Source: Eledone cirrhosa (lineage: Eukaryota). Taken from it: a stretch of DNA of 64,000 nucleotides. A program made the translations under genes and the position numbers. The notes beneath the pieces are model-generated. The model searched no databases. It was not told the origin of the DNA and was given only the letters and a program-made list of their open reading frames with translations. Where the stretch lies: positions 274,660,001-274,724,000 of the forward strand of contig OZ024743.1 in assembly GCA_964016885.1 (NCBI GenBank), written 5' to 3'. Shown here piece after piece: positions 5,698 through 63,519 of the stretch (position 1 is the stretch's first letter; every line of letters begins with the position of its first letter).

Positions 5698-7407
5698 GTG
5701 TGTCTGTATGTGTATGCGGGTGCGTGTGCCCATATGATTGTGCATGTGTGTGTGAGGCGTTAGCATTTCAGCATAAAATTTGCATATATATGCTGACTGA
5801 GGGAGAAGTCATGTTTAATGCATCATTCTTGAAAACACCCATGAGATAGCCTCTTGCTTTGCACAGTAGTTCATGTTGTTATTTATTGCAGTTAATGTTG
5901 TTGTTGTCATTGTCGACGTTGTTGTAATCGTTGTTGTCTCCATCGTCGTTGCTGTTATTGTTGTTTTTGTATTTGTGTTGTTATTGTCATTGTTGTTGCT
6001 GTCGTCTTAGATATATATATATTTTTTTTTATCGTTGTCGTTGATGTTCTCTTTGTTGTTGTTGTTGATGTTTTTATTGTGATTACAGTTCCTGTTGTTC
6101 CTTTTGTTGTTGCCGTTGTTGTTGTTGTCGTCATCGTCGTCATCGTGGTCGTAATCATATATATTCCTGTCAGTTTTGCTCTCACACTAAACTTATTTCA
6201 CGGAAATAGCCAATGGAACTGCTCGAAGTAAACCATGTGTTTGCAGTTTTATGTTCATGTGACTGACACATACCTGGTGCACAAGGAATTTATATCTGCA
6301 TAACAGGATAGCCAAAATACGACAACGGTGAAGATAATGATGATGACGACGACGACGACGGCGAGGAGGAGGAGGACAATTACGATAATGATGATTATGG
6401 TGGTGCTGGTTTCTAATTTAGGCACGCGATCAGCCATTTGGAAGGAGGAGAAAACCGATTATATCGACTTCGGTACTTAATGGCATATATAAAGAAACCA
6501 TTAGAATAAAGAAACCATTATATTTTATATACCTCGGAAAGATGAAGTTGACTTCGGCGGTAATTGAACTCAGAACATAAGGAGCCGAAATACATACCGC
6601 ATAGCATTTTGTCTGGCGATCTAATGATTCTGCCAATTCACTACTTTTTAAAAAGGAAATCTCTAAATACGTGAAACCAACACTAGAAACTGAACTGGGG
6701 AGCTCTCGATCAATAATAATATTCTTGTGCTTGTTTTACTCATTAGACTGCGACCAGGATTTAGTGGATCATATTAAATCCAGTATTTATGTTTTTCATG
6801 TTTGGGACTTATTTTATCGATCTCTATTTGTCGAACTGCTAAATTACTAAACATAGACACATACACAAACGTAAACATAGATACGAACACACGCGTATAA
6901 ACAGATAAACTGATCACCGGTTTGCATCTGGAAAGTTCCTTTCTAAGATACAAGCCTAGGTAAGACGTTTTGTGCAAGAGCAGCCGGCATCCATGTATGC
7001 CACTCTCCTCTCTCCACACAATAGATGTCATCTAATGGAAAGTCAAAGGCTTGCCACCAGTGTCATCGCAACCAATTTTTTCAGCAGTTGGGTGGACTGG
7101 AGTAATGTGTAATAAAGTGCCTTGCTCAAAGACACAACCCACCGCTATATTAGGGATTCTAACTCATGATTTTACGATCGCGGGTCCACCACTAAAGCCT
7201 CAAAGCCAGGTATCTTCAGCAACAACCGGAACAGCAGTAATAAAAGTTAAGAGTAAATTAACTCTTATCGTCCTGCACCACACGAAGTCACATTAGCAAG
7301 ACATTTTTTAAAAGTACAAAACAGCATTATGGCTGCAACACATAAAAAAATGATAGTCCTTACTATAATACTGCAAATGTTCACAACAATTTGTCACCTA
7401 GTAAATA

Positions 7408-7628
7408 CAGGGTGAGTCATAAGTAACCGGAAAGTCAATGCATTTTTATTGCAAGATTCAGATAACCTTTTGAACATCCACTTATTTGTGCGATCAGCCT
7501 TGGTTATATTTTTTAACTATTTTTTGTTTGGTGTATTTATAATTACGTAATGTATTACCAGAATTTTAGTAAATATTATCATATGGAATATATATGTTGG
7601 ATTGTCCTGTTACTTATGACTCACATTG
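7408..7628. mobile_element. Tc1/mariner-type MITE
   Basis: TIRs cagggtgagtcataagtaac / gttacttatgactcacattg; TA on both sides. Confidence 0.8.
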
Positions 7629-7909
7629 TATTTTATAAACATTTGAATTAGCAGACCAGATTTTAAATATTTTCTGCTAGATCATTACAGAATGTCAAGA
7701 GTTAAATAGAAAGAAAGAATGCAAGTTAGCAATGGAAGTTATTGGGAAAATGTCAAATTTTAAGTCTCGAAGTAAAGTTACATGCTTGATAGATGAGTTC
7801 GATTAATGAGAGTGACATAAACAAGCGCAAATATTTCCATGAAGTCGCTATATAATGCACGTGAAATTATGTACACAGAAAATATAAATATATACAAGAA
7901 CGAAGTGTG

Positions 7910-9490: not shown

Positions 9491-9591
<101 letters not shown>

Positions 9592-9734
9592 GTGAGGTTT
9601 TTTTTACAAAATGAAAAATAACCGAGGTGTCCTACACGAGTGAAAGTATAAAGAAAAAGAGATGAAATCGAAAATGTAACTGGAGTCTTATTTTTTTTTT
9701 TTTTTTTTAAATTTATATATTTATTTGGTTCCTT

Positions 9735-9784
9735 AAAAATATGGAACGCTTCACGAATTTGCGTGTCATCCTTGCGCATGGGCC

Positions 9785-9817
<33 letters not shown>

Positions 9818-9841
9818 AATATGTACTGCCGTAACTAGTAC
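9735..9841 (-). ncRNA. U6: Full-length (107 nt) U6 snRNA retrocopy, probably a pseudogene
   Basis: Minus strand reads GTACTAGTTACGGCAGTACATATTCTAAAATTGGAACGATACAGAGAAGATTAGCATGGCCCATGCGCAAGGATGACACGCAAATTCGTGAAGCGTTCCATATTTTT, with the ACAGAGA box, ISL and 5' stem. Its upstream flank is an inverted U6 fragment, not a promoter. Confidence 0.95.
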
Positions 9842-9844
9842 GTA

Positions 9845-9885
9845 GCAAGGATGACACGCAAATTCGTGAAGCGTTCCATATTTTT
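9845..9885 (+). ncRNA. U6: Inverted 3' fragment of U6 snRNA
   Basis: gcaaggatgacacgcaaattcgtgaagcgttccatattttt; reverse complement of 9735-9775. Confidence 0.93.
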
Positions 9886-9958
9886 AAGGAACCAAATAAA
9901 TATATATATTTTTTTAAAAAATAAGACTCCAGTTGCATTTTCGATTTCATCTCTTTTT

Positions 9959-10006
<48 letters not shown>

Positions 10007-10012
<6 letters not shown>

Positions 10013-10224
10013 AAAAAAAGATGAAATCGAAAATGCAACTGGAGTCTTATTTTTTTTTTAATATATATATTTATTTGGTTCCTTTACCGGTTTCGCAGTT
10101 CTTCTGTGAAACCGGTATATATATATTTTTTTTAAATAAGACTCCAGTTGCATTTTCGATTTCATCCTTTTTTCTTTATACTTTCACTCGTGTAGGGCAC
10201 CTCGGTTATTTTTCATTCTGTAAA

Positions 10225-12227: not shown

Positions 12228-13137
12228 ACGTTTGTGACTGTCCCTGATTATGACCATAACTTTACGATTCAAAAAACAGATCGATAAAGTACCAGACTTT
12301 AAAAAATAAATGCTGGAGTCGATTAGATCAACCAGATCAAAGTGGCGCCCTAGCATGCCCACTGTCTACTGGCTTAAATAAGTAAAGGAGTAAAAGAATT
12401 AAGGATATATTTAATCTTAAGCACATGTGACATCGATGTAGTTGATGTTCGAGATTGAGTTGGAATACAATTCTTGAGCTTTGCAGACCTGGGGATTTGG
12501 TGATTAGGAAAGTGTTTAGTGAAGTATTCAGGTGAAGGTGAACAGTGTTTTACTTGCAAATGAAGGAGGAAGGAAGAGCTGGTTGCACGGGTTTCAGCGG
12601 GGAGAGTATCCAAGCTGCTAATTCAGTAGACCAAACCTTTTTTACTGAATGAAAAACAAAAATAGTTGAGGTAGACAAGTAACGTTGATCCCGATCAAAT
12701 TTGAACTCAGAAAAAATAAAATAAAATACAAGCTCTCACCGTATATTGAGTACTGAAAAATAGTCAAAATAATTAGGGCCTATGAACACCATAACAGAAT
12801 AAAATGAGTATGAGCATGTGTGGGAATCGAACCCCATTATCATCGTATTCTAGTTCACACGGGATTAAATATTTGTCGCTATTAACTTTACAGCTTCTAA
12901 ACTGAACGGAGGAAAAATCGGGTGAGGATGTTGGTGTAATTGGTTTAGCATATTTATCGCGAAAATAGGAGGTGTAGGTTCGAATCCTATTTTCGCGATC
13001 AGTCAACTCATACACACTTCCGTTCTCAGCAGAGCCTGACCCGGGGTGTAAATCTGCTAGGTTAAACGCGCGTCCTCGAATTTGGTATGCTAATTTGTTG
13101 TGGAACTAACTCTCTCTCTCTATATATATATATATAA

Positions 13138-13325
13138 AACAAAAAGGGCGTGGTAAGATACCAGATGGACCATAACGCACCAGAGTACTCAATAGTTAGA
13201 GTAGTAGAGTGTGTAATAGGAAAAGAGTCAGGACCCCGACGGCTGAGCTCCGGCCGTTTCGACAGCTAGTTCGGATCTAGCTGTCGAAATGGCCGGAGCT
13301 CAGCCGTTGGGATCCTGACTCTTTT

Positions 13326-13329
<4 letters not shown>
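13138..13329. mobile_element. Family B fold-back element in (TA)n carrying a hammerhead 3' half
   Basis: ctgtc-GAAA-cggc cggagctca gccg-TC^ggggtc, with tail cttttcctattac..tattgagtactctggtgcgttatggtcc; centre gacagctagttcggatctagctgtc. Confidence 0.7.
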
Positions 13330-13395
<66 letters not shown>

Positions 13396-13398
<3 letters not shown>

Positions 13399-13865
13399 AG
13401 GAAGTTGTAGTTCACTTGAAGCATTGTGTAATGAGATATAAACGTTTGGAGTTGTAAGGCCAAGACAATGCAGGTATGGATATAGAATATAAATGCAAAT
13501 GCAAAAGATATTGTTGACAATTAGTCTTTTACCTTAAATTTATCTAAATATCCTTAATTTTCGAGATAATATCTCTTCTTCGGAGGGAAGTAAAGGGGTT
13601 AATCCAGTGTTCTAATTAGCTTGCCAAGTCATGCTGACAGGAAGTGGTATAGAGATATATACCATTTCCTGTCAGCATGACTTGGCAAGCTAATAAGAAC
13701 ACTGGATTAACCTCTTTACTTCTCTCCGAAGAAGAGATATTATCTCGAAAATTAAGGATAATTAAATAAATTTAAGGTAAAAGACTAATTGTCAACAATA
13801 TCTTTTTTATTTGCATTTATATTCTATATCCATACCTGCATTGTCTTGGCCTTACAACTCCAAAC

Positions 13866-13870
<5 letters not shown>
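13396..13870. mobile_element. Family D fold-back element in (TA)n with ~215-bp arms, each carrying a minimal HHR-like motif
   Basis: Arms 13437-13651 and 13660-13870. Motif cct-CCGAAGA-a-gagat att atctc-GAAA-at-TA^agg at 13551-13590(-), with a near-identical copy at 13721-13757(+). Confidence 0.7.
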
Positions 13871-20412: not shown

Positions 20413-20805
20413 CTACATAATCGACTACCCACTTCAATCGAATTTGTAGCTTTTTACCTGTGCTAAACAAAATTATTTTCTTTCCATAACCTACCTATTG
20501 TCTGCTTAAACATTTGTGTTCCAAAAGTCAGTCGTAGTAGTAATCGATCATCGATCATGTGTTGATACTGCTCACATCGAAGTCCGGACCGAATATGTGA
20601 AAGTCACTCAGGTGTCGGTGCCATAACTTCCACTTAGTAAGTATGTACATTCTCACATGTTTTGTAACAGATTTTGAATGCCACGCTTTGTATGCCACGT
20701 TTTATATAGTGTGTGAAGATTACTAATCATATAGTCGATAAAATAAAGAACTAATAAAATACTGGGGAGAACGATCAACAAGATCCGACCTCTTCATTTA
20801 CAGAG

Positions 20806-20993
20806 TAATAATAATTGTTTCTACTTTAGGCACAAGGCCAGCAATTACTCAGTGCATTACTGGTACTTTATTTTATCGACCCCGTAAGGATGAAAGGTAA
20901 AGTCAACCTCGGCGGGATTTGAATTCAGATCGTAAAGGGACGTAACTATGCTGGAAAGCATAGCGTCCGACCCTCTACCGATACTGCCAATCC
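20806..20993 (-). mobile_element. SINE family 1 copy
   Basis: Homologous to 36078-36272. Confidence 0.85.
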
Positions 20994-21009
20994 ACATAAT
21001 AAAGAATGA

Positions 21010-26159: not shown

Positions 26160-26363
26160 TAACGAAGGAAATGTGGTAATGAACCAGATGGACCATAACG
26201 CACCAAAGTACTCAATATTAGTGTAGTAGAGTGGGTAATAGGAAAAGGAATGACCCCGACGGCAGAGCTCAAGCCGTTTCGACGGCTATTTCTGGACTGA
26301 AATAGTCCAGAAATAGCTGTCGAAACGGCATGATATCTGCCGTCGGGGTCATACCTTTTCCTA
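26160..26363. mobile_element. Family B fold-back copy
   Basis: Palindrome centred on gacggctatttctggact-gaaat-agtccagaaatagctgtc; same tail as other copies. Confidence 0.7.
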
Positions 26364-26832
26364 AGGTTGGCAGATCACTGATGAAGGACTAAATTTATTC
26401 ATATGTAACCCATTTGCAACCACGCAGCACGCCATGTTTTCATATTCATATATATATATCTATATATATATATATATATATAGGTATACATTGTATACAT
26501 GCATCCATATAAAGCTATATAAGACATTCAAGGTTTCCATAAAAACAACAAGATGAAGAGATCAAGCTGAAACTTCGAAATCATTGCCACATTTCTATTT
26601 AGAAAATACATTTTTACACTACTCTCCAGTATTGAGTGCTCACTCAGTTAACCTTTGCTTTAAATACTGTGAGGGGGCGGGTGACTGGTTTCTGCACAGT
26701 GTCTGCCTATCAAATTCTACTTACAAGGCATTGGTCAACTTCTGGTTTAAGTCATAGAATTCTGTTTGAAATGTCAAACAATGGCACTGAACCCAAGTTA
26801 GTAGTAGTAGTAGTAGTAGTAGTAGCAGTAGC

Positions 26833-28210: not shown

Positions 28211-28399
28211 GTTATTCCGAGTTAAATCGGAGGTAACCACAGTAAGTAAGGTACTCAATACATTGCAGAGTATAAAAGTTTTAATATAGATGAGTTTCTA
28301 CAGGACTAAAACTGTTTCATTCTTTAGAAATCATCAGGAATTCTGATGATTTCTAAAGAATGAAACAGTTCTAGTCCTGTAGAATCTCATCTATATTAA

Positions 28400-28402
<3 letters not shown>
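28210..28402. mobile_element. Family A fold-back element in (TA)n with two inverted type I hammerheads
   Basis: CTGATGA-tttc taaa gaat-GAAA-cag tt(c/t)tagtc ctg-TA^gaa on both strands; palindrome 28278-28402. Confidence 0.8.
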
Positions 28403-28776: not shown

Positions 28777-28834
28777 ATACCTGATGATGCCACCGGATTC
28801 ATACTGAACCCGGTCATTGAAATGTTCATAGTAT
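28777..28834 (+). ncRNA. Putative type I hammerhead ribozyme
   Basis: atac-CTGATGA-tgcc accgg attca tac tgaac ccggt catt-GAAA-tgttca-TA^gtat, followed by aataaa. Confidence 0.65.
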
Positions 28835-32178: not shown

Positions 32179-32181
<3 letters not shown>

Positions 32182-32451
32182 TGGCTGCCAACTCGTTTTC
32201 GAGTACGGCCAATACTTTATATCCATATAGGAGAACCCCTACCGATGCGCTGAACGAGTGTGACTTTTTAATCCAGCCAGCGACTTGAAAATTCTGGTAC
32301 AAACATTACACTTGTGACAATTATTGACACATAGTGCTGGGCCCATGGTACCATGTGACGACAAGTGCAGAGAGATCTCCAGATATAAAGCAATGCCTGT
32401 GCCGTGAAGCTTTTATAGTGAGCAAAGGCACTGCACAAAGCCAGTCCCACT
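32179..32451 (-). mobile_element. 5'-truncated copy of the same RTE derivative
   Basis: Matches 40165-40437; encodes KCNVCTRIFKSLAGLKSHTRSAH*. Confidence 0.75.
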
Positions 32452-32537: not shown

Positions 32538-32676
32538 GTTTCGGGAGGTAACCACAGTTTAAAAGAACACCCAATACGTTGGTAGAGTATAGACATCTTT
32601 ATTATATATAGAGAAATCACTTCTACAGGACTAGATCTGTTTCATTCGTATGAAACAGTTTTAGTCCTGTAGAAGT
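32538..32676. mobile_element. Family A fold-back element truncated in HHR stem II
   Basis: Shared ggaggtaaccacagt end; palindrome 32619-32676 acttctacaggact..tttcat tcgt atgaaa..agtcctgtagaagt. Confidence 0.72.
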
Positions 32677-32781: not shown

Positions 32782-32828
<47 letters not shown>

Positions 32829-32858
32829 GTGTATTTTATTTCTCATTCTACCTTGTGA

Positions 32859-32894
32859 TCTTCTGATGAAGGATTAGTGTCCGAAACGTTAAAA
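32859..32894 (+). ncRNA. Putative minimal PLE-type hammerhead
   Basis: tt-CTGATGA-a-gga ttagtg tcc-GAAA-cgt-TA^aa; palindromic AACGTT. Confidence 0.6.
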
Positions 32895-33047
32895 CTCTTT
32901 TTTTTTTTTTGTTATTTCAAGCATTAAACTAATGTATTTCTTCATTGTACTGTGTTGTTTGGTTTGTTATTTCTGTTTACTTTTTACATGCATACACATA
33001 TACACAAATATACACACACACACACACACATACATACGTATATTTAT

Positions 33048-33202
33048 ATAGGAAAAGAGTCAGGACCCCGACGGCTGAACTCCGGCCGTTTCGACAGCTA
33101 GATCCGAAGGCAGATCTTTTCCTATTATCCACTCTACTACCCTAAGTATTGAGTACCCTGGTGCGTTATGGTCCACCTGGTTTCTTACCACACTTTCTTT
33201 GT

Positions 33203-35146: not shown

Positions 35147-35338
35147 AGTTACTCTGGGTTCAATCGGGGGTAACCACAGTAAGTAAGGTACTCAATACAT
35201 AGCAGAGTATAAATGTTTTAATATAGAAAAGCTTCTACAGGACTAGAACTGTTTCATTCATAAGAAATCATCAGGAAGCTCTTCCTGGTGATTTCTCACG
35301 AATGAAACAGTTCTGGTCCTGTAGAAGCTTTTCTATAT
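35147..35338. mobile_element. Family A fold-back element with two inverted hammerheads
   Basis: Minus strand: agcttc-CTGATGA-tttc ttat gaat-GAAA-cag ttctagtc ctg-TA^gaagct (6-bp stem I). The plus arm has CTGGTGA. Confidence 0.82.
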
Positions 35339-35402: not shown

Positions 35403-35616
35403 ATGTGAGAAAAACCACAGAACCACAGACCCTCCATCTCAACTCTACTTTTGAAAAGCAGAAGAACTGCGAAACCGGTAAAGGACCAAATAAATATATA
35501 TATATTTTTTTTAAATAAGACTCCAGTTGCATTTTTCTATTTCATCTTTTTTTCTTTATACTTTCACTCGTGTAGGACACCTCGGTTATTTTTTTATTTT
35601 GTAAAAAAAACCTCAC

Positions 35617-35623
<7 letters not shown>
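35401..35623 (+). mobile_element. Family C monomer with minimal type I hammerhead (U3-A8 core variant) at 35448-35483
   Basis: ctt-TTGAAAA-gcag aagaa ctgc-GAAA-ccgg-TA^aag. The downstream tail matches 9585-9734(-) and 10118-10225. Confidence 0.78.
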
Positions 35624-35701
<78 letters not shown>

Positions 35702-36077
35702 GGTATATACATATATATATAGAGAGAGAGATTTATATATACATATATACATCTCTTTAAGGTTTACTACTTTATATATACATATATGCATCTCTTTAAG
35801 GTTTACTACCCTGTCTTTAACCTAATTCATTCAATCTGAAAATATTGAAGAGATAAGACACTTTCCCATTCTTCTCTGCTAAAATGTATCACTAGAGTTG
35901 ATTCCAATTTTTCCAGCCATCCATCCATCCATCCATCCATCCTTACTAATCTACGAAGGTATTTTAGCCTACATATTGTTGTTAATATTAATGATTAATG
36001 ATGTTCCCTGCTGTATTAGCGATAAATTTTCGAGGGTTTTTCTTAGTAGTTTTTCATGACGTTATTATTTATAATTT

Positions 36078-36272
36078 TAGGGCGGTGAATTGGCAGTATC
36101 GGTAGAGGGTTGGACGCCATGCTTTGACGCATAGAGTTACGGCCCTTGCCATTCTGAGTTCAAATCCCGCCGAGGTTAACTTTGCCTTTCATCCTTATGG
36201 GGTCGATAAAATAAAGTACCAGTAATGTACTGGATAATTGCTGGCCTTGTGCCAAAAGTAGAAACAGTTATT
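36078..36272 (+). mobile_element. tRNA-derived SINE family 1 (MetaSINE-like core), representative full copy
   Basis: A box tggcagtatcgg, B box gagttcaaatcc, core gcctttcatcc..ggggtcgataaaataaagtacc, (TTA) tail. Other copies ~6405-6645(-), 25830-25948(+), 28532-28675(+), 29828-29945(-), 30297-30507(+), 32015-32112(+), 53160-53320(-). Confidence 0.85.
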
Positions 36273-36539
36273 ATTTATAATTTTACTGATGTAGTATTAA
36301 CTTGGATATTTACCATGCGGTATTCTAATTCTATTGTATCTCTCTCAGTTATTTACCATGCGACCCTCACTTCCTACCTCACAAGTCCCCCCCCCCCCCC
36401 CCCACACACACACCACCATAGTCTATTCGACCAATCAAACCTAGCATGCCATTTCCACCACTGCTGCTGCTACTACCTGCCTAACTCACTCTCTCCTCCT
36501 CTGGCGCATCCCAACACACCCTGCCATTACCCCACCACC

Positions 36540-39500
36540 ACTGTTCTTCTAGCCCTCAATTTTCCCACCGTTATGGATGGATGAGCTGAGAATACATTTG
36601 AGCAACTCTGAATCAATAGATGAAATATGAATCTGCGAGCTACCAAGCACCCACGTGAAGCGCCAACCCAGAGACCCTCCCCTACGAGTGTCGACAAATG
36701 CCCAAAACTCCGAGTTGGTACCATCAATGTAGGCTCAATGAAAGGAAGAGCAGGAGAAATCGTAGAAATGCTAGAGCGAAAGGAAGTTGATGTATGCTGT
36801 GTGCAAGAGACTAGATGGAGAGGAGGGTCTGCTAGAGTCCTTGTAGGAAAAAGCCAGTGCTACAAATTTTTCTGGGTGGGAAATGACGATGGGATGGGTG
36901 GTGTAGGTATACTATTAGCTGACAAGTGGGTAGATAAAGTAATCTCAGTGTACAGGGTAAATGCAAGAATCATTAAACTCAGACTAGTCCTGAATAAGAC
37001 AATTACCACAATAATATCAGCTTACGCACCCCAATCGGGGCTGCCAGACGAACTTAAGGATAGGTTTTACGAGTCCCTAATACACACTACTGCTCTAACA
37101 GACGACAAGGACTTCCTAATCATTGCAGGAGATTTTAACGGACACGTAGGTAAACACTGCGACGGCTTCAATAGAGTACATGGAGGCCATGGAGTTGGCA
37201 CAAGGAATGAGGAAGGATTCAGACTTCTAGAATTCTGCGACGCCAATGACATGTCGATATGTAACACAAACTTTAAAAAACCCGACAACCACCTGATCAC
37301 CTATAGATCAGGGGAGCACTCTAGTCAGTTAGATTTTATTCTCATCAGAGGACGTGACAGATGGACGGTCGTAAACACAAAAGCCTTCCCTAGTGAGGAA
37401 TGTACATCCCAACATAGCTTAGTTGTCAGCGACCTCACGGTCAGAACTAGACGAACCCGGAAACAGAGGCCAACCTGGAGAAGAAAGATCTGGAAGCTGA
37501 AAGTCCCCTCAACCAGTAACAGATTTAAAGATATTTTACTCAACGCCTACGACAGTAAAGAAGAACAGATAGAGACATTTAACGTAGAAGAGAACTGGGA
37601 GTTCCTAAAAAATAACTTACTAGAGGCGACGGATGAGGTTTGTGGCTGGAGTAAGACCACAAGCAGGAGGAGAGTGACTTGGTGGTGGAACAATAAGGTA
37701 GATGAAGCAGTCAAGGCCAAGAGACAGGCATGGAAAGAATGGAAGAACGGGGGGAGCAGGGTACATTACATAGAGACCAAGAGGGAAGCTAGGCGACAAG
37801 TATACTTAGCTAGGAGGGAAGCAGAGGATAGAAAATTCAAGCATGTTTTACAACGTGAGGACCAGAAACAGGAGGTATTCAAGATTGCGAGGCAGTGTGT
37901 CAGAGATAGTTGTGATGTCATTGGAGAGAAGTGTATCCGGAATGATAAAGGTGAGCTTTCCCTCACAAGTGCTGAGAAGAAAGATGCATGGAAGAGTCAT
38001 TATGATAGATTACTAAATGAGGAGAATGCATGGGAAGAAGAGACCCTACCCCACGTAGACCCTATAGAGGGACCAGCAGTACAAGTCAGCGGCAGCGTAG
38101 TAAGTAAGGCAATCAGAGATATGAAGATAGGGAAGACAACCGGTCCATCGGGTATAGCTGCCGAGATGCTGAAGGCATCTGGGTCTGTAGGTCACACTAT
38201 AACCACACGTATCGTTAACCAGGTAATACTAGAAGGGGCCATACCAAAGATCGGTGCAGTAGCATCATTGTCAACTGCTACAAAGGTAAAGGCGATGCAC
38301 TAGATAGAGGAAACTATAGAGGTATAAAGTTGATGGACCAGGTCATGAAAGTAACAGAAAGAGTTATAGCACAGCTGATTAGGGACCGGGTGAATATAGA
38401 CGAGATGCAATTTGGGTTTGTACTAGGGAAAGGCACCACTGATGCCCTCTTCCTTGTGAGGCAATTACAGGAAAATTACCTAGCTAAAAGTAAGCCACTC
38501 TACTTGGCATTTGTCGACCTAGAGAAAGCCTTTGACAGAGTTCCACGTGCAGTAATCTGGTGGGCTCTTAGAAAACTAGGAGTAGATGAATGGCTTGTGA
38601 AAGCGGTACAAGCCATGTATAGGGGAGCAGTCAGCAAAGTTAGGATTAGCAATGAGTATAGCGAGGAATTTAGCGTACAGGTTGGGGTCCACCAGGGCTC
38701 TGTTCTTAGCCCTCTCCTGTTCATCATAGTCCTGCAGGCAATAACGGAGGAGTTTAAGACCGGATGCCCATGGGAACACCTGTATGCTGATGACCTCGCA
38801 CTCATAGCTGAATCTATGGTAGAACTAGAGAATAAATTCCAAACCTGGAAGCAGGGACTAGAGAGAAAGGGCCTCAAAGTCAACATGACAAAGACTAAGG
38901 TCCTTGTAAGTAGACGAGAAAACAGAACCCAGATCCCCTCAGGGAAATGGCCTTGCTCAGTATGTAGGAAAGGTGTAGGTAGGAACTCCATTCTCTGCCC
39001 CAAATGCAAACAATGGGTACACAAGAGATGTAGCGGGATCTCAGGAAGCTTAATTAAGAATGTAGGATTCACATGCAGCAGCTGTGCTGAAACAGCAAGC
39101 AAACAGCCACAGGAAACAAGTACCACCAATCTCTGGGAGGGCCCTGTAGAAACAGTAGACAGCTTCTGCTACCTAGGTGACCGAATTAGCAACGGAGGTG
39201 GGTGCTCAGAAAGTACAATAACTAGGGTAAGAACGGGATGGAAGAAGTTTAGGGAACTACTACCACTGCTAGCTGCAAAAGGCTTCTCCCTCAGAATGAA
39301 AGGCAGACTGTATGATGCGTGTATCCGAACAGCGATGTTGCATGGTAGTGAGACCTGGGCGCTGAAGGTGGAAGACTTACGTAGATTAGAGAGAAACGAA
39401 GCCTGCATGCTCCGATGGATGTGTAACAGTAATATACGTGAACGACAAAGCATAAAGGAATTGAGAGAGAGACTGAGCATAAGAGGAATCAAATGCTGCG

Positions 39501-40046
39501 TGCAGGAGAGGCGGTTACGCTGGTATGGACATGTGATGCGTATGAAGGATGACAGCTGCATAAAAAGGTGCAGAGCACTAGAAGTTGATGGAAACCGCGG
39601 AGTGGGGAGACCCAAGATGACTTGGGATGAGGTGATAAAAGCCGACCTTACCCAACTACACCTCTCAAAGTCAATGACACACGACCGTGACTTCTGGCAT
39701 CACGCAGTAATACAGGGTACCCGACCTCCCATGGGTACATGCTGAAGCATATAAACAATATGCCCCCACTCCCCCCACCGCAAGGTGGTCGTGGAGGTGC
39801 CACGGCAAAAAAGCACCCAGCCCACACTGTAAAGTGGACGTGTAGGCGCCACGAAAAAGCACCCAGCACTCACTGTAAATGAGGTTGGTGTTAGGAAGGG
39901 CATCCAGCTGTAGAAATCAAGCCAGATCAGTTCCTGTATGAGCAAAGCATGGTCAGCCGACCAGACACTGCCCACAACAGGACAACCCGTCTAACCCATG
40001 CTAGCGTGGAAGAACGGACGTAAAACGGTGATGATGATGATGATGA
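36540..40046 (+). mobile_element. RTE-clade non-LTR retrotransposon, near full length, (GAT)n 3' tail
   Basis: APE endonuclease and RT reading frames (below), followed by a 3' UTR ending ...ggacgtaaaacggtgatgatgatgatg. The 5' boundary is approximate. Confidence 0.93.
36627..39745 (+). pseudogene. RTE APE endonuclease/reverse transcriptase ORF split by one frameshift near 38247
   Basis: APE motifs GTINVGSM, VQETRW, SAYAPQ, GDFNGHVG, QLDFIL. RT motifs QFGF, AFVDLEKAFDRV, GVHQGSVLSPLLF, YADD, FCYLG, RRLRWYGHV. Shifting frame at ~38247 restores ..CSSIIVNCYKGKGDALDRGNYRGIKL. Confidence 0.92.
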
Positions 40047-40164: not shown

Positions 40165-40773
40165 TGGTGGCTGCCAACTCGTTTTCGAGTACGGCCACTA
40201 CTTTATATCCATGTAGGAGAACCCTTACCGATGCACTGAACGAGTGTGACTTTTTAGTCCAGCCAGCAACTTGAAAACTCTGGTACAAACACTACACTTG
40301 TGACAATTATTGACACATAGTGCTGGGCCCATGGTACCATGTGACGACAAGTGCAGAGAGATCTCCAGATATAAAGCAATGCCTGTGCCGTGAAGCTTTT
40401 ATAGTGAGCAAAGGCACTGCACAAAGCCAGTCCCACTCTCTTAACCAAGATGATATTTACCAAAAAGAAGAACAAGTCAACATCATTGGATACCATCAGA
40501 GTTGCAGGTGTTATATCAGAGTTTTCCTTCTCCTAGAATTCTGCCTTGACAAAGGCTAAGGGGTCATCTCTCCCGGTGATTTTGGATGGCCATTGACTCT
40601 TAAGAGCTCCTTTGCCATTTGACAGGTTTTGTTTTTAGTCCTGCAGGATGTCCAAAGTCACCCTCCTCACCAAGAAACCTTGGTGGGGTTGCCAGTTTAG
40701 TCGCCAACGACCCGACCATGAGACAGGTTGTACTGGGATACATGTTACCAGTAGCACCAACTGGTGACCTGAC
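40165..40773 (-). mobile_element. Non-autonomous RTE-derived element in (TACA)n
   Basis: RTE-like 5' UTR motifs (ctaggagaaggaaaactctga; ggcgactaaactggcaacccc), terminal C2H2 remnant KCSVCTRVFKLLAGLKSHTRSVH*, and a (TGTA)n tail. Confidence 0.75.
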
Positions 40774-42087: not shown

Positions 42088-42091
<4 letters not shown>

Positions 42092-42228
42092 AAAAGAGTC
42101 AGGATTCCGACGGCTGAGCTCCGGCCGTCGGAATGGCCGGAGCACAGCCGTCGGAATCCTGACTCTTTTCCTATTACCCACTCTACTACACTGCGTTATG
42201 GTCCACCTGGTTTCTTACCACACCTTCA
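42088..42228. mobile_element. Family B fold-back copy
   Basis: taggaaaagagtcaggattccgacggctg...cagccgtcggaatcctgactcttttccta. Confidence 0.7.
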
Positions 42229-45753: not shown

Positions 45754-45790
45754 TTTGCCTCTCACTATATTTAGCATATGAAAACCTCTA

Positions 45791-45829
<39 letters not shown>

Positions 45830-45863
45830 GAGTTTTTCGTATGCTAAATATAGTGAGAGGCAA
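45754..45863. repeat. Inverted repeat enclosing a (TA)n tract
   Basis: ttgcctctcactatatttagcata...tatgctaaatatagtgagaggcaa. Confidence 0.7.
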
Positions 45864-46311: not shown

Positions 46312-46424
46312 AATGAAAATATAGAAATTAATGTGAGCAAGAAGCCAACAGTATTTCATAATATATAAGTGACTATAACGTCAAAATGGAAAATAATTCA
46401 AACTCAATATATATATTATATTTT

Positions 46425-46550
46425 AGCCGTCGAAACGGCTTGAGCTCTGCCACCGGGGTCATACATTTTCCTATTACCCATTCTACTACCCTAAGTATTG
46501 AGTACTCTGGTGCGTTATGGTCTATCTGGTTCCTTATCACAACTCCTTCG

Positions 46551-46552
<2 letters not shown>
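46425..46552 (+). mobile_element. Family B monomer fragment ending in (TA)n
   Basis: gtcgaaacggcttgagctctgccaccggggtc...tattgagtactctggtgcgttatgg. Confidence 0.65.
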
Positions 46553-46620
<68 letters not shown>

Positions 46621-46648
46621 AAATGTGTGCGTTCCTTATTATAGTTAA

Positions 46649-46827
46649 AAGAAGAAAAAGAATGACTTCACTTGTAGTCGGTGTTCGAAACAATTATATT
46701 TTATAATTTTATAATTTTGTTATGTAGATCTATATAGCAAAATTACAAAATTATGTAATTGTAAAATCATAAAATCAAATTGTTATAGAATACCAACTAC
46801 AAGTGAAGTCATTCTTTTCCTTTTTTC
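46649..46827. repeat. Imperfect fold-back element next to (TA)n
   Basis: aaaagaatgacttcacttgtagt...actacaagtgaagtcattctttt. Confidence 0.7.
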
Positions 46828-47752
46828 AAATATATGTATAAGTTGCACAAGGAAAAAAAAGAACGGAATACGTTTACGAATGAACGAAACCACCTAACTT
46901 CCTCATCGGCCACCACATCGGGATTGTATTTTCGTGCATAAAGGTGGCAGTGCATAATATTGTGTCTAGGCTGCTTAGAACAGGGGACAACACAACAAAA
47001 TAGTGACAGTGGAAAACAAGTAAGTGTCTTCGACTAGGAGAGCAGAGTAAGTGCATAAATGAATGATATATATATATCTAATTATAACACACATAAACAG
47101 GTACTTAAGTTTCGTTAGCTTCTAGATCCCAACTCATTCAGCCTGTCATAAGATGAATAAAAATAAAGATGGCCGCCTGGGGTTGATTGTGCTTTCCTTT
47201 TAGAGATATATTATAAGAACTTAAACAAAGGCAAGTAATTTAGAAATTAGTTAGAAAAAGGTTGCTTTTATTTTTTATTAGAAGGTAAAATCAAGGGGGG
47301 GGGGGGGACTCTTGAGAGACCACAGTCAAGATTGAATGAAAATATAAGAAAAATATTTTTTTCTAGCTAGCTCAGAAAATCAGATTTCCTTCATATTCAA
47401 AATAGTCAGTAAATTAAAGTATACTTCTAGACCTCTTAGTCAGGTCTAAGCCATTTATCAAAATATACTTCTTCTCACGAAGACAGCCGCTAAAGCAATC
47501 AAGTCGTGTGTTGAGGCAGTGTTTATATGAAGCTAGTTGTGAGAGTATATATATATAGGGAGTTGAAAACGAGAAAGTGGACAAAGACGTCTGTGCTATA
47601 ATCACCTCTCTACTTCATAACAAGCCGGAACAGAGAATGTCTTCCGTTGGGACTGTACCTTATATGTGTTTATATATGTATAAATATATATATATATATA
47701 TTTATATATTATTTTATATATATATATATATTTATATATTTATATATTTATG

Positions 47753-50302: not shown

Positions 50303-51594
50303 GGTCCATCCCTGAATCTGTCTACATGTCTGCCTGCCGATCTGTCTATTGCCATTCACAAATCTTTTGCCTCCTTGATTCCAGTGTAACATTGTAACTA
50401 AGTTAAAACGTGTGTGACAAGTAAAGTTATAGAAATTAATCACCAATTCTACAGAGTTAATAATGGAGAAGTTGATGCTTTATATTGGACATTTCAATAA
50501 CAAGTGTTTGTGATATCAAACAAATGCAAACCACTTCTGGTCACTTGAGAAAGGTGAAAACCGAGAATATCTCAGTTATAACAATATAAAGAAGCACTAT
50601 CGATATTGATAAAGATTTGTAGCAGACTGAGGAATGTTAGGAATGTACCCCAAAGACAACCCACCAGCCACTACCCAAACACTAACAATATTACAAGCAT
50701 CACCAGCAGATTCATTGACTAATAACAACTACAGCAACAGTACTATCATCAGCCAGGCTGATTGTTAAATTATCGCTGACTGGTCATTTATGCAACTGTA
50801 TTTAGCGCTATAAGCTATTAAATAGATTAGAAATTGCTTCAAGGATGATGTAATGCAATCAATAATCTAATGAATAAGTGGTTAGAATGTTTGACTTTCA
50901 AGTTGCAGGGGTTGTGTCTTAGGGCAATGTTCGGTAACTTGCATTGGCAGGAAATTGACTATGAGGAATAACACTACTTAAAATGAATAAATTATGTAGT
51001 GAAGACGCGTGGCTTAGTGGTTAGAGAGTTGGATTCAATTCTTGAACAGGGTGATCGTTGTGTCCTTGAGCAAGACATTTTATTTCAAGTTGCGCCTTCT
51101 GCCAAGAGATGCGACCGGTAGATAGTATTAACAAGGAAAAGATCAATGGAAACATTGTTTCCTTGGTCCGATTTGACGAGGTCCATCCCACTCGGCAAGC
51201 GTATGAGCTCTAGTATCTTGTTGATCGATCTGAGAGAGAGATGGATGACTAAAATATATTTAACGTGGACGAATATGTTTCCTTATAGATAAATATTGTA
51301 TAATATTAATAATTTTACTGGTTTCTAATTTTGGCACAAGGCTAATAATTTAACTGAAAGCGGAACATCAATTAAATTGACCCCAGTACTTGACTGGTAC
51401 TTTATTTTATCGACCCGAGAATAAAGAAAGGCGAAGTTGACCTCGCTGTGATTTGAACTCCACTTTGTCTTTCATCTTCCCGTGGTCGATAAAATAAAGT
51501 ACGACATTAATAAAAAGAAAAAATGATAAAGCTGAATGTGAACGATGTAAACAGAAACAATTCTTATAATAATAGGTGCTCAGGAATTGATGGT

Positions 51595-51843: not shown

Positions 51844-52310
51844 ATTAACTAATAATAATTGTTTCTACTTTTGGCACAAGGCCAGCAATTACCCAGTACA
51901 TTACTGGTACTTTATTTTATCGACCCCGAAAGGAGGAAAAGCAAATTTAACCTCGGCTGGATTTGAACTCAGTCCGTAAAGGGACATAACTCTATGCTGG
52001 AAAGCATGGCGTCCGACCCTCTACCGATACTACCAATCCACCGCCCTATTATTAACTAATAATAATTGTTTCTACTTTAGGCACAAGGTCACAAATACCC
52101 AGTACATTACTGGTACTTTATTTTATCGACCCCGTAAGGATGAAAGGCAAAGTTAACCTCGGCGGGATTTGAACTCAGACCGTAAAGGGACGTAACTATG
52201 CTGGAAAGCATGGCATGGCTTCTAATTTAGGCACAAGGCCAAGAATGGGAGGGGAAAGTCTACTAAATCGACCCCAGTCTGTTACTGGTACTTTTTTTAT
52301 CGACCCCGCA
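51844..52310 (-). mobile_element. Three tandem or nested SINE family 1 copies
   Basis: Core ttttatcgacccc occurs three times; attaactaataataattgtttc repeated at ~51844 and ~52051. Confidence 0.8.
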
Positions 52311-54557: not shown

Positions 54558-54721
54558 ACAAAGAAAGTGTGGCAAGAAAACAGGTGGACCTTAACGCACC
54601 AGAGTACTCGATATTTAGGGTAGTAGAGTGGGTAATAGGAAAAGAGTCAGAACCCCAATGGCTGAGCTCTAGCTGTCAAAACGGCCGGAGCTCAGTCATC
54701 GGGACCCTGATACTTTCCCTA
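54555..54721. mobile_element. Family B fold-back copy in (GATA)n
   Basis: cgcaccagagtactcga...taggaaaagagtcagaaccccaatggctgagctc...ggccggagctcagtcatcggg. Confidence 0.65.
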
Positions 54722-57338: not shown

Positions 57339-57935
57339 GTCAGGTCACCAGTTGGTGCTACTGGTAACATGTATCCCAGTACAACCTGTCTCATTTCGGG
57401 TCGTTGGCGACTAAACTGGCAACCCCACCAAGGTTTTTTGGTGAGGAGGATGACTTTGGATATCCTGCAGGACTAAAAACAAAACCTCTCAAAGGGCAAA
57501 GGGTCAATGGCCATCCAAAATCACCGGGAGAGATGACCCCTTAGCCTTTGTCAAGGCAGAATTCTAGGAGAAGGAAAACTCTGATATAACACCTGCAACC
57601 CTGATGGTATCCAATGATGTTGACTTGTTCTTCTTTTTGGTAAATATCATCTTGGTTAAGAGAGTGGGACTGGCTTTGTACAGTGCCTTTGCTCACTATA
57701 AAAGCTTCACGGCACAGGCATTGCTTTATATCTGGAGATCTCTCTGCACTTGTCGTCACAAGATAACATGGGCCCAGCACTATGTGTCAATAATTGTCAC
57801 AAGTGTAGTGTTTCTACCAGAGTTTTCAAGTCGCTGGCTGGACTAAAATGTCACACTCGTTCAGCGCATCGGTAGGGGTTCTCCTACATGGATATAAAGT
57901 AGTGGCCGTACTCGAAAACGAGTTGGCAGCCACCA
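57339..57935 (+). mobile_element. Second full copy of the non-autonomous RTE derivative, in (TGTA)n
   Basis: Colinear with the reverse complement of 40165-40773, with the same termini. Confidence 0.78.
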
Positions 57936-61506: not shown

Positions 61507-62581
<1,075 letters not shown>

Positions 62582-63122: not shown

Positions 63123-63176
63123 CATATATATATTTACAAGTGGTATATATATATATACATATATATATATACAAGT

Positions 63177-63232
<56 letters not shown>

Positions 63233-63237
63233 CAAGT

Positions 63238-63299
<62 letters not shown>

Positions 63300-63519
63300 A
63301 GTGGAAACTTGGTAAAATCGAAACCTTTGGCTGTGGTCAAGCAAAGTCGACCTACAATAGTAGGTCTTAAGAGTAATAACATACGTTTAATAGCTTGACA
63401 AATTGAACATTGCGGTAGGTAAACCCAGCCATACAATACCAATGCAACGAAAGAACTAATATATATATATATATATATAACATTATAAACATCTGTATAT
63501 ATATATACTTTTATATACT

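Follow-up and report, generated by a model that had tools for sequence, protein, structure and literature searches.

Inverted, one-sidedly tailed retroelement stubs carrying minimal hammerhead motifs, and a U6 snRNA junction at a predicted ribozyme cleavage site: a possible case of twin priming with cDNA fold-back

How the inverted, tailed ends of Penelope-like elements (PLEs) originate, and whether the minimal hammerhead ribozymes of such elements cut inside cells, are questions described as open in the accessible portions of PMC8557442, PMC4209133, and PMC11167929. Both are raised by the 64-kb stretch of AT-rich, animal-type DNA analyzed here (the window), which contains 132 simple-repeat runs and in which palindromes were found by self-comparison with simple repeats masked. 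Models of insertion are separable by the register of the apex and by which arm owns the spacer, and U6 small nuclear RNA (snRNA) sequence joined at the scissile bond would demonstrate in vivo cutting by the ribozyme; the very high copy number of one stub family in this genome renders both questions testable by counting.

Fourteen palindromes were identified, a sample of insertions picked by eye and BLAST from this one window. Eleven are inverted stubs of hammerhead type belonging to three families, designated A (seven copies, six inverted), B (three copies, all inverted), and C (three copies, two inverted), and the remaining three are free of hammerhead sequence. All nine centers quoted in a preliminary description of this DNA are present, with spacers at 10099-10103 (5 nt), 13270-13276 (7 nt), 26299-26303 (5 nt), 28338-28342 (5 nt), 32646-32649 (4 nt), 35279-35280 (2 nt), 42127-42134 (8 nt), 1805-1823 (19 nt) and, at a turn involving a U6 copy, 9776-9844 (69 nt, mostly the 5′ part of U6). 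That description did not include the family A inversions at 33105 and 54678 or the hammerhead-free palindromes centered at 188, 13654, and 46728. Nearly all of the palindromes are composed of one long and one short arm and adjoin microsatellites, mostly (TA)n, and a one-sided tail (45 to 80 nt where measured) was evident in all 11 hammerhead-type copies and in two of the three others, the palindrome at 46.7 kb being unclear; when target-site duplication was examined, the flanks were found to be simple repeats. The unequal arms and the outward tails into microsatellites that had been described previously were therefore upheld, with three exceptions as regards the latter: the short arm at 26363 enters another repeat, that at 32676 enters a C/CT tract, and the copy at 54.6 kb lies within (GATA)n.

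Because turn points vary between copies (five distinct turns in the six inversions of family A, three in three of family B, and two in two of family C), the mirror half appears to have been made at insertion. The palindromes are real and most probably 5′-truncated PLE ends whose mirror half is rebuilt at each insertion, which is a published pattern, and in themselves they represent ordinary PLE debris. No open reading frame of the window adjoins any stub, and neither an autonomous partner nor a full RNA was seen for the families, which counts against the model preferred below. Pattern scans yielded no matches in viral contigs or prokaryote genomes and, for family C, none in metagenomes; matches of family A to four metagenome loci, aligning over only 20 to 22 nt, were dropped as chance.

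The uninverted member of family C (35421-35622, plus strand) harbors a type I hammerhead with a U3-A8 core at 35451-35480 and a predicted cut after position 35480. This core was the sole match in the window to a type I hammerhead descriptor, which produced one match in 20 shuffles of the masked window, and it displays the features of the minimal type, namely, a 3-8 pair, GAAA, UH, G10.1-C11.1, a minimal, palindromic helix III, and a short helix I. Its U3-A8 pair replaces C3-G8, a covariation reported for Schistosoma PLE hammerheads in the accessible part of PMC4209133; helix II comprises 4 bp, while helix I is extended from 3 to 4 bp by common variants at 35446-35447 (approximately 30% of contig word depth). 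The family is abundant, as 3,504 contigs of run X1, 2,189 reads of run X17, and nine contigs of run X4 aligned to it; run X14, of which 0 reads aligned, constitutes no test. No Rfam hammerhead model reached the gathering score in the window, nor was one present among 133 weak matches in the 26- to 36-kb region; minimal hammerhead motifs may fall outside the Rfam models. When ribozyme copies were folded singly, z-scores were significant only across apexes, where the result is circular. A further minimal hammerhead, with a complete core and short helices, is located on an uninverted stub at 32827-32910 which starts approximately 36 nt upstream of the core and adjoins (TA)n, and weaker core-like motifs occur at 28781 (plus strand) and 42347 (minus strand).

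The two inverted copies of family C, insertions X and Y, lie side by side, their short arms being separated by (TA)24 (9962-10009) and stopping at the same family C position. In insertion X, the short arm (10010-10107, minus strand) comprises native stem II (loop in sense orientation), GAAA, a minimal stem III, the cleavage triplet, and the tail to the fixed short end, while the long arm (10104-10224, plus strand) runs from the stem II 3′ strand and GAAA, carries a deletion of approximately 15 nt after the cleavage triplet, and enters (TA)n. The apex at 10095-10107 matches the register of native stem II (4 bp and a 5-nt loop), and its earlier identification as stem II of a hammerhead proved correct; it is the sole quoted center for which an uninverted copy displays the native hairpin (35458-35470), the other stem assignments being weaker. 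Since the loop is in sense on the short arm, it was the short strand that did the folding, and the tail-bearing arm was not simply the first strand copied into the other arm.

Family A copies contain only the second half of the core (GAAA, helix III, and UC), and none of the seven elements in the window extends further upstream. The palindrome at 13139-13327, with its long arm to the left, has its apex at 13261-13285 (9 bp around the 7-nt spacer), where the native stem is presumed, and that of a second subfamily at 26162-26363 turns in the stem II region around a 5-nt spacer. The spacer of the palindrome at 42090-42226 (8 nt) adjoins stem III, and an in-register reading is arguable there. Three further inversions were assigned to this family: 33049-33202, the short arm of which extends to the same 7-nt spacer as that at 13270 and the long arm of which has no ribozyme part; 54558-54719, located in (GATA)n; and the diverged copy at 1782-1926, the short arm extending further 5′ than the long arm in both of the last two. 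The uninverted stub (46424-46551, plus strand) is truncated within the stem II 3′ strand. Family B possesses the two core boxes together with helices I and III, but its helix II is weak, with T opposite T in place of G10.1-C11.1. Its palindromes turn approximately 5 nt upstream of C3, with the whole core in both arms (28211-28402), at the 5′ edge of stem I (35148-35333), and within the stem II region, out of register (32540-32676). Subfamily or private variants are shared by the arms at 26301, 42130, 28340, and 35279; in two old family A copies, the arms are no closer to each other than to other copies. Short motifs common to the tails of A (13139-13255) and B (35148-35240) suggest related parent elements.

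Among the hammerhead-free palindromes, that at 31-280 has identical arms (the only such case, at 97-280), a zero spacer, a 66-nt one-sided tail, and (TA)n flanks; that at 13396-13868 has arms of approximately 210 nt, a 45-nt one-sided tail, and (TA)n flanks; and an older one at 46616-46834 has a zero spacer and uncertain outer ends. Smaller inverted repeats at 45758-45860, 7403-7633, and 12956-12999 include one around (TA)16, one pair 230 bp apart, and one tRNA-like hairpin region. Several other repeats share the window. At 61508-62462, two 276-bp direct repeats (99% alike) surround a pyrimidine-rich spacer and end in (TA)n, with a first-half core motif, and a fragment of this repeat (26365-26446) directly follows the short arm at 26363. 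At 63134-63460, the end of the adjoining element recurs as an identical unit of 7 to 9 nt, present four times with (TA)n between, as if end-priming had restarted repeatedly. A young repeat family (32180-32451, 40166-40771, and 57341-57934; 95 to 97% alike) has a common end which abuts (TA)n or (TACA)n-type repeats, and an abundant SINE-like family of approximately 200 bp is represented at 1982-2166, 20801-20995, 36062-36275, and 51851-52214, among others, with a diverged palindrome at 51397-51502. Two overlapping long open reading frames (36624-39745; 559 and 508 amino acids), with one frameshift, have the look of a LINE endonuclease and reverse transcriptase (RT), an assignment made by eye.

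The preliminary description held that apexes fall on ribozyme hairpins, a nascent cDNA stalling at RNA structure, snapping back, and copying itself. In the form assessed here, a single target-primed cDNA would stall at such a hairpin and snap back in register, the short arm being purely second strand, trimmed by the endonuclease. An in-register turn was established for one of the 11 hammerhead-type copies (X), and two more are arguable, i.e., 13273, where it is probable given the presumed stem, and 42130, where an 11-nt stretch carrying the private variant of that copy is repeated at the apex. The other eight turns are out of register, among them those at 32647 and 1826, which had been assigned to stems, and those of the B copies at 28340 and 35279, which are placed at the 5′ boundary of helix I and leave the entire core in both arms. 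It is in keeping with snap-back at stems that none of the 11 turns falls outside the motif, its 5′ boundary, and the fused U6 (where the turn is at the template 5′ end), as are the tight spacers and the ascription of the tail to endonuclease resolution in the accessible text of PMC8557442. However, hairpins account for 62%, 70%, and 88% of the motif in C, B, and A, respectively, and any turn within a motif will thus tend to lie “on a stem.” With an assumed chance of 5 to 10% per event, a rough binomial gives P values of 0.10 to 0.30 for two in-register turns and 0.015 to 0.09 for three, and the observed turns point only weakly to apexes on hairpins above expectation.

Read depth in run X17 does not fall over family C stem II (812, 845, 874, and 895 going upstream), while decreases are seen at the boundary of helix I (727 and then 473) and near 35421 (224); this profile, from which X1 contig word depth was omitted owing to edge effects, excludes 35481-35520, just past the predicted cut, such that copies ending inside stem II may be undercounted, and it samples few loci. 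Among the joints listed, the one opposite-strand family C joint (58 X17 raw reads with two start places, probably from one locus) is at the element 5′ end (35421), three further joints without stated orientation being left out of the count. In the uninverted C copy and in the minimal hammerhead at 32863, copying had passed every stem. Considering also the three palindromes without a hammerhead, the loop of X belonging to the short arm, and the short arms which outrun long ones, stalling followed by in-register snap-back is an unlikely account of these insertions, and ribozyme stems as the general determinant of the turn point are not supported.

A different part of that proposal, namely, self-copying, fared better. 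Spacers of 8 nt or less were measured in 7 of the 11 hammerhead-type copies and in all three hammerhead-free palindromes (10 of 14 overall), two of them being zero; the inversion at 33105, for which no innermost stem was found, was entered as a large spacer. Relative to independent stops over an assumed 60-nt range, a rough binomial for 7 of 11 tight spacers gives a P value of approximately 0.005, or 0.04 upon omission of two B copies which may sit at the template end. Spacers this small are indicative of coupled synthesis, probably by self-priming, and in this respect the snap-back idea is retained without stalling at ribozyme stems as its rule.

The outer ends of the short arms offer a second line of evidence. 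These ends are fixed in all six A copies and both C copies and differ among the three B copies, the latter being a point against the model preferred below. The C end lies past nine earlier TA dinucleotides, including one TA run, and a “first TA microhomology” therefore fails to explain where short arms stop in this family. In 4 of the 11 copies (X, 1826, 33105, and 54678), the short arm extends further 5′ than the long arm, which could reflect later central deletions or a flip of the spacer (two are old copies) and is not decisive. Tight spacers favor a fold-back step, whereas fixed short ends and outrunning short arms favor separate priming of each arm; the spacer is owned by either arm.

We consider the best model, with a probability of roughly 0.45, to be twin target priming, in which a single RNA is copied from two RT start sites and either cDNA folds back to bridge the two. 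The PLE enzyme would nick both strands of a (TA)n-type target, and from the two resulting 3′ ends cDNA synthesis would begin on one RNA, at a pair of start sites particular to each family, of which the outer would give rise to the long, tail-bearing arm and the inner to the short arm. Copying would halt within the hammerhead or at the RNA 5′ end just upstream of it, whereupon either cDNA could fold back, usually on 0 to 2 nt of microhomology and only occasionally on a native stem, to make a sense copy that would pair with the other cDNA and close the insertion. The fold-back half of this model is read from the spacer sizes, while the priming half would hold by analogy with an anole PLE which, according to the accessible part of PMC11167929, nicks and extends both strands in vitro, is modeled as a dimer, and starts reverse transcription at two internal sites matching the tail boundaries. 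The T/A tract of family C counts against twin priming with fold-back: in all five arms (9690-9725, 9900-9925, 10035-10060, 10117-10140, and 35495-35515), the plus strand of this tract has a long run of T followed by a short one of A, an order which ignores arm orientation, and the partner arms consequently differ there in both X and Y, which direct copying does not predict.

Twin priming could also be completed by plain end-joining, in which cDNAs primed on opposite strands would be joined by repair in the absence of self-priming, with stems providing occasional microhomology. The fixed short ends and outrunning short arms are as expected in that case, as are the turn at U6, with three extra bases and no microhomology, and the both-strand priming observed in vitro (PMC11167929, accessible part). 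Nonetheless, spacers of 0 to 8 nt in 10 of 14 palindromes would require two cDNAs to halt at almost the same base despite variable turn points, and we rate this explanation as doubtful, on a par with in-register snap-back. Inheritance from preformed, MITE-like palindromic masters, or DNA-level fold-back repair after insertion, is more improbable still; 13273 and 33105 have one 7-nt spacer in common and the turns of the two long B copies are only a few bases apart, yet most apexes differ within a family, and the copies resemble PLE insertions in having a tail on one side only, fixed inner ends, and microsatellites lying outward. The fixed MITE considered previously is excluded by this within-family variation together with the unequal arms and the existence of uninverted copies (35421 and 46424). 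Sequencing or assembly fold-back artefacts, which the fully identical arms at 97-280 might evoke were it not for their having the same one-sided tail, can be dismissed, since substitutions, many being transitions, separate the arms (3 of 54 positions at 13273, all transitions, and 8 of 216 at 13654, the two copies to which mismatch counts were restricted because some other arm alignments extend into flanking repeats), the architecture recurs by family, and the opposite-strand family C joint is present in the raw reads of another study's run, X17.

Insertion Y bears on the question of cleavage. Its long arm (9586-9734, minus strand) extends from the first base past the predicted cleavage site of family C to the 3′ end, and this cleavage-site base is joined to a full-length copy of U6 snRNA with five T at its end (9735-9841, minus strand; RF00026, 111.6 bits, model positions 1 to 105 of 105), the only RNA reported by Rfam at gathering score across the whole window. 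The short arm (9845-9961, plus strand) comprises the last 41 nt of U6, the same junction, and the family C tail to the fixed short end, preceded by three extra bases (9842-9844). In both arms, the five-T end of U6 abuts the first base after the predicted cut with no microhomology, and the presence of the same junction in both arms implies one template for both. That U6 was a resident gene struck by the insertion is ruled out, as the inverted arm is attached to its 5′ end and (TA)n lies on either side.

Cleavage by a hammerhead yields a 3′ product with a 5′-OH, and R2-type RTs are capable of end-to-end template jumps. Mature U6 has a five-U end with a 2′,3′-cyclic phosphate, and RtcB ligates U6 to RNAs bearing a 5′-OH, as detailed in the accessible part of PMC6789731. 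The template of Y may accordingly be pictured as U6 joined to the hammerhead 3′ cleavage product, via RtcB-type ligation or an end-to-end template jump; a jump would likewise require an RNA beginning at the scissile bond, and the same holds for read-through of a U6 gene into a copy whose truncation lies at the cut. The chance of a junction at one position in an element of approximately 200 nt is approximately 0.5%, or 1.5% counting the A run, figures which apply to a single event noticed after the fact. The position of the junction at the predicted ribozyme cut suggests a possible trace of cleavage in living cells. We would put at even odds the fuller proposal that the junction at 9734/9735 records in vivo cleavage by a minimal U3-A8 metazoan PLE hammerhead, the 5′-OH product of which was joined to U6 by either route and mobilized by PLE machinery, with closure through twin target priming and cDNA fold-back from either arm. 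If this is true, U6-hammerhead chimeras would provide a genome-wide readout of ribozyme activity.

The architecture of these insertions is already known for PLEs, and the U6-hammerhead junction is the more novel point. As described in the accessible parts of PMC8557442 and PMC3846280, endonuclease-bearing PLEs form inverted, 5′-truncated pLTRs with a one-sided tail, and the stubs resemble these in their head-to-head inverted truncated copy, one-sided tail, (TA)n targets, and junction palindromes; they differ in being only 100 to 470 nt long and devoid of an open reading frame, with tails of 45 to 80 nt compared to the published 30 to 40 nt. Self-priming was inferred from junction palindromes in 2013, as RNA self-priming on an antisense template rather than cDNA fold-back (PMC3846280, accessible part), and a literature search largely confined to open-access main texts returned no other report of cDNA snap-back or twin priming in PLEs. 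The family C core resembles the minimal type I hammerheads of metazoan PLEs (PMC4209133) in its short helix I, tiny palindromic helix III, G10.1-C11.1, and U3-A8 core, whereas it has a helix II of 4 bp, and the other families also depart from that type, B in the absence of G10.1-C11.1 and A in retaining only the second core half in the window; the accessible portion of that study describes opposite-strand motif pairs 100 to 700 bp apart and presents no evidence of in vivo cleavage. The two RT start sites bounding the tail, the AT-rich targets, and the nicking and extension of both strands are shared with the Anolis element Poseidon PAc in vitro (PMC11167929). For Poseidon PAc, the accessible text reports that cleavage is dispensable in vitro and that 0 RNA-seq reads start or end at the cut site; the U6 junction points in the opposite direction, albeit as one event in a different organism.

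The search of open-access main texts likewise returned no report of U6 fused to a PLE or a hammerhead, and the words “Penelope” and “ribozyme” are absent from PMC4476161, a survey of U6 chimeras, and from the preprint PMC11838501. The chimera in Y shares with the U6/LINE chimeras described in the accessible parts of PMC6789731 and PMC4476161 a full-length U6 with a T tract, positioned 5′ of a truncated retroelement with no microhomology. It differs from them in that its partner is a family C tail with PLE-type ends as opposed to L1, L2, or RTE, that the chimera is partly duplicated in inverted form, and that the junction coincides with a predicted ribozyme cut which would itself supply the 5′-OH.
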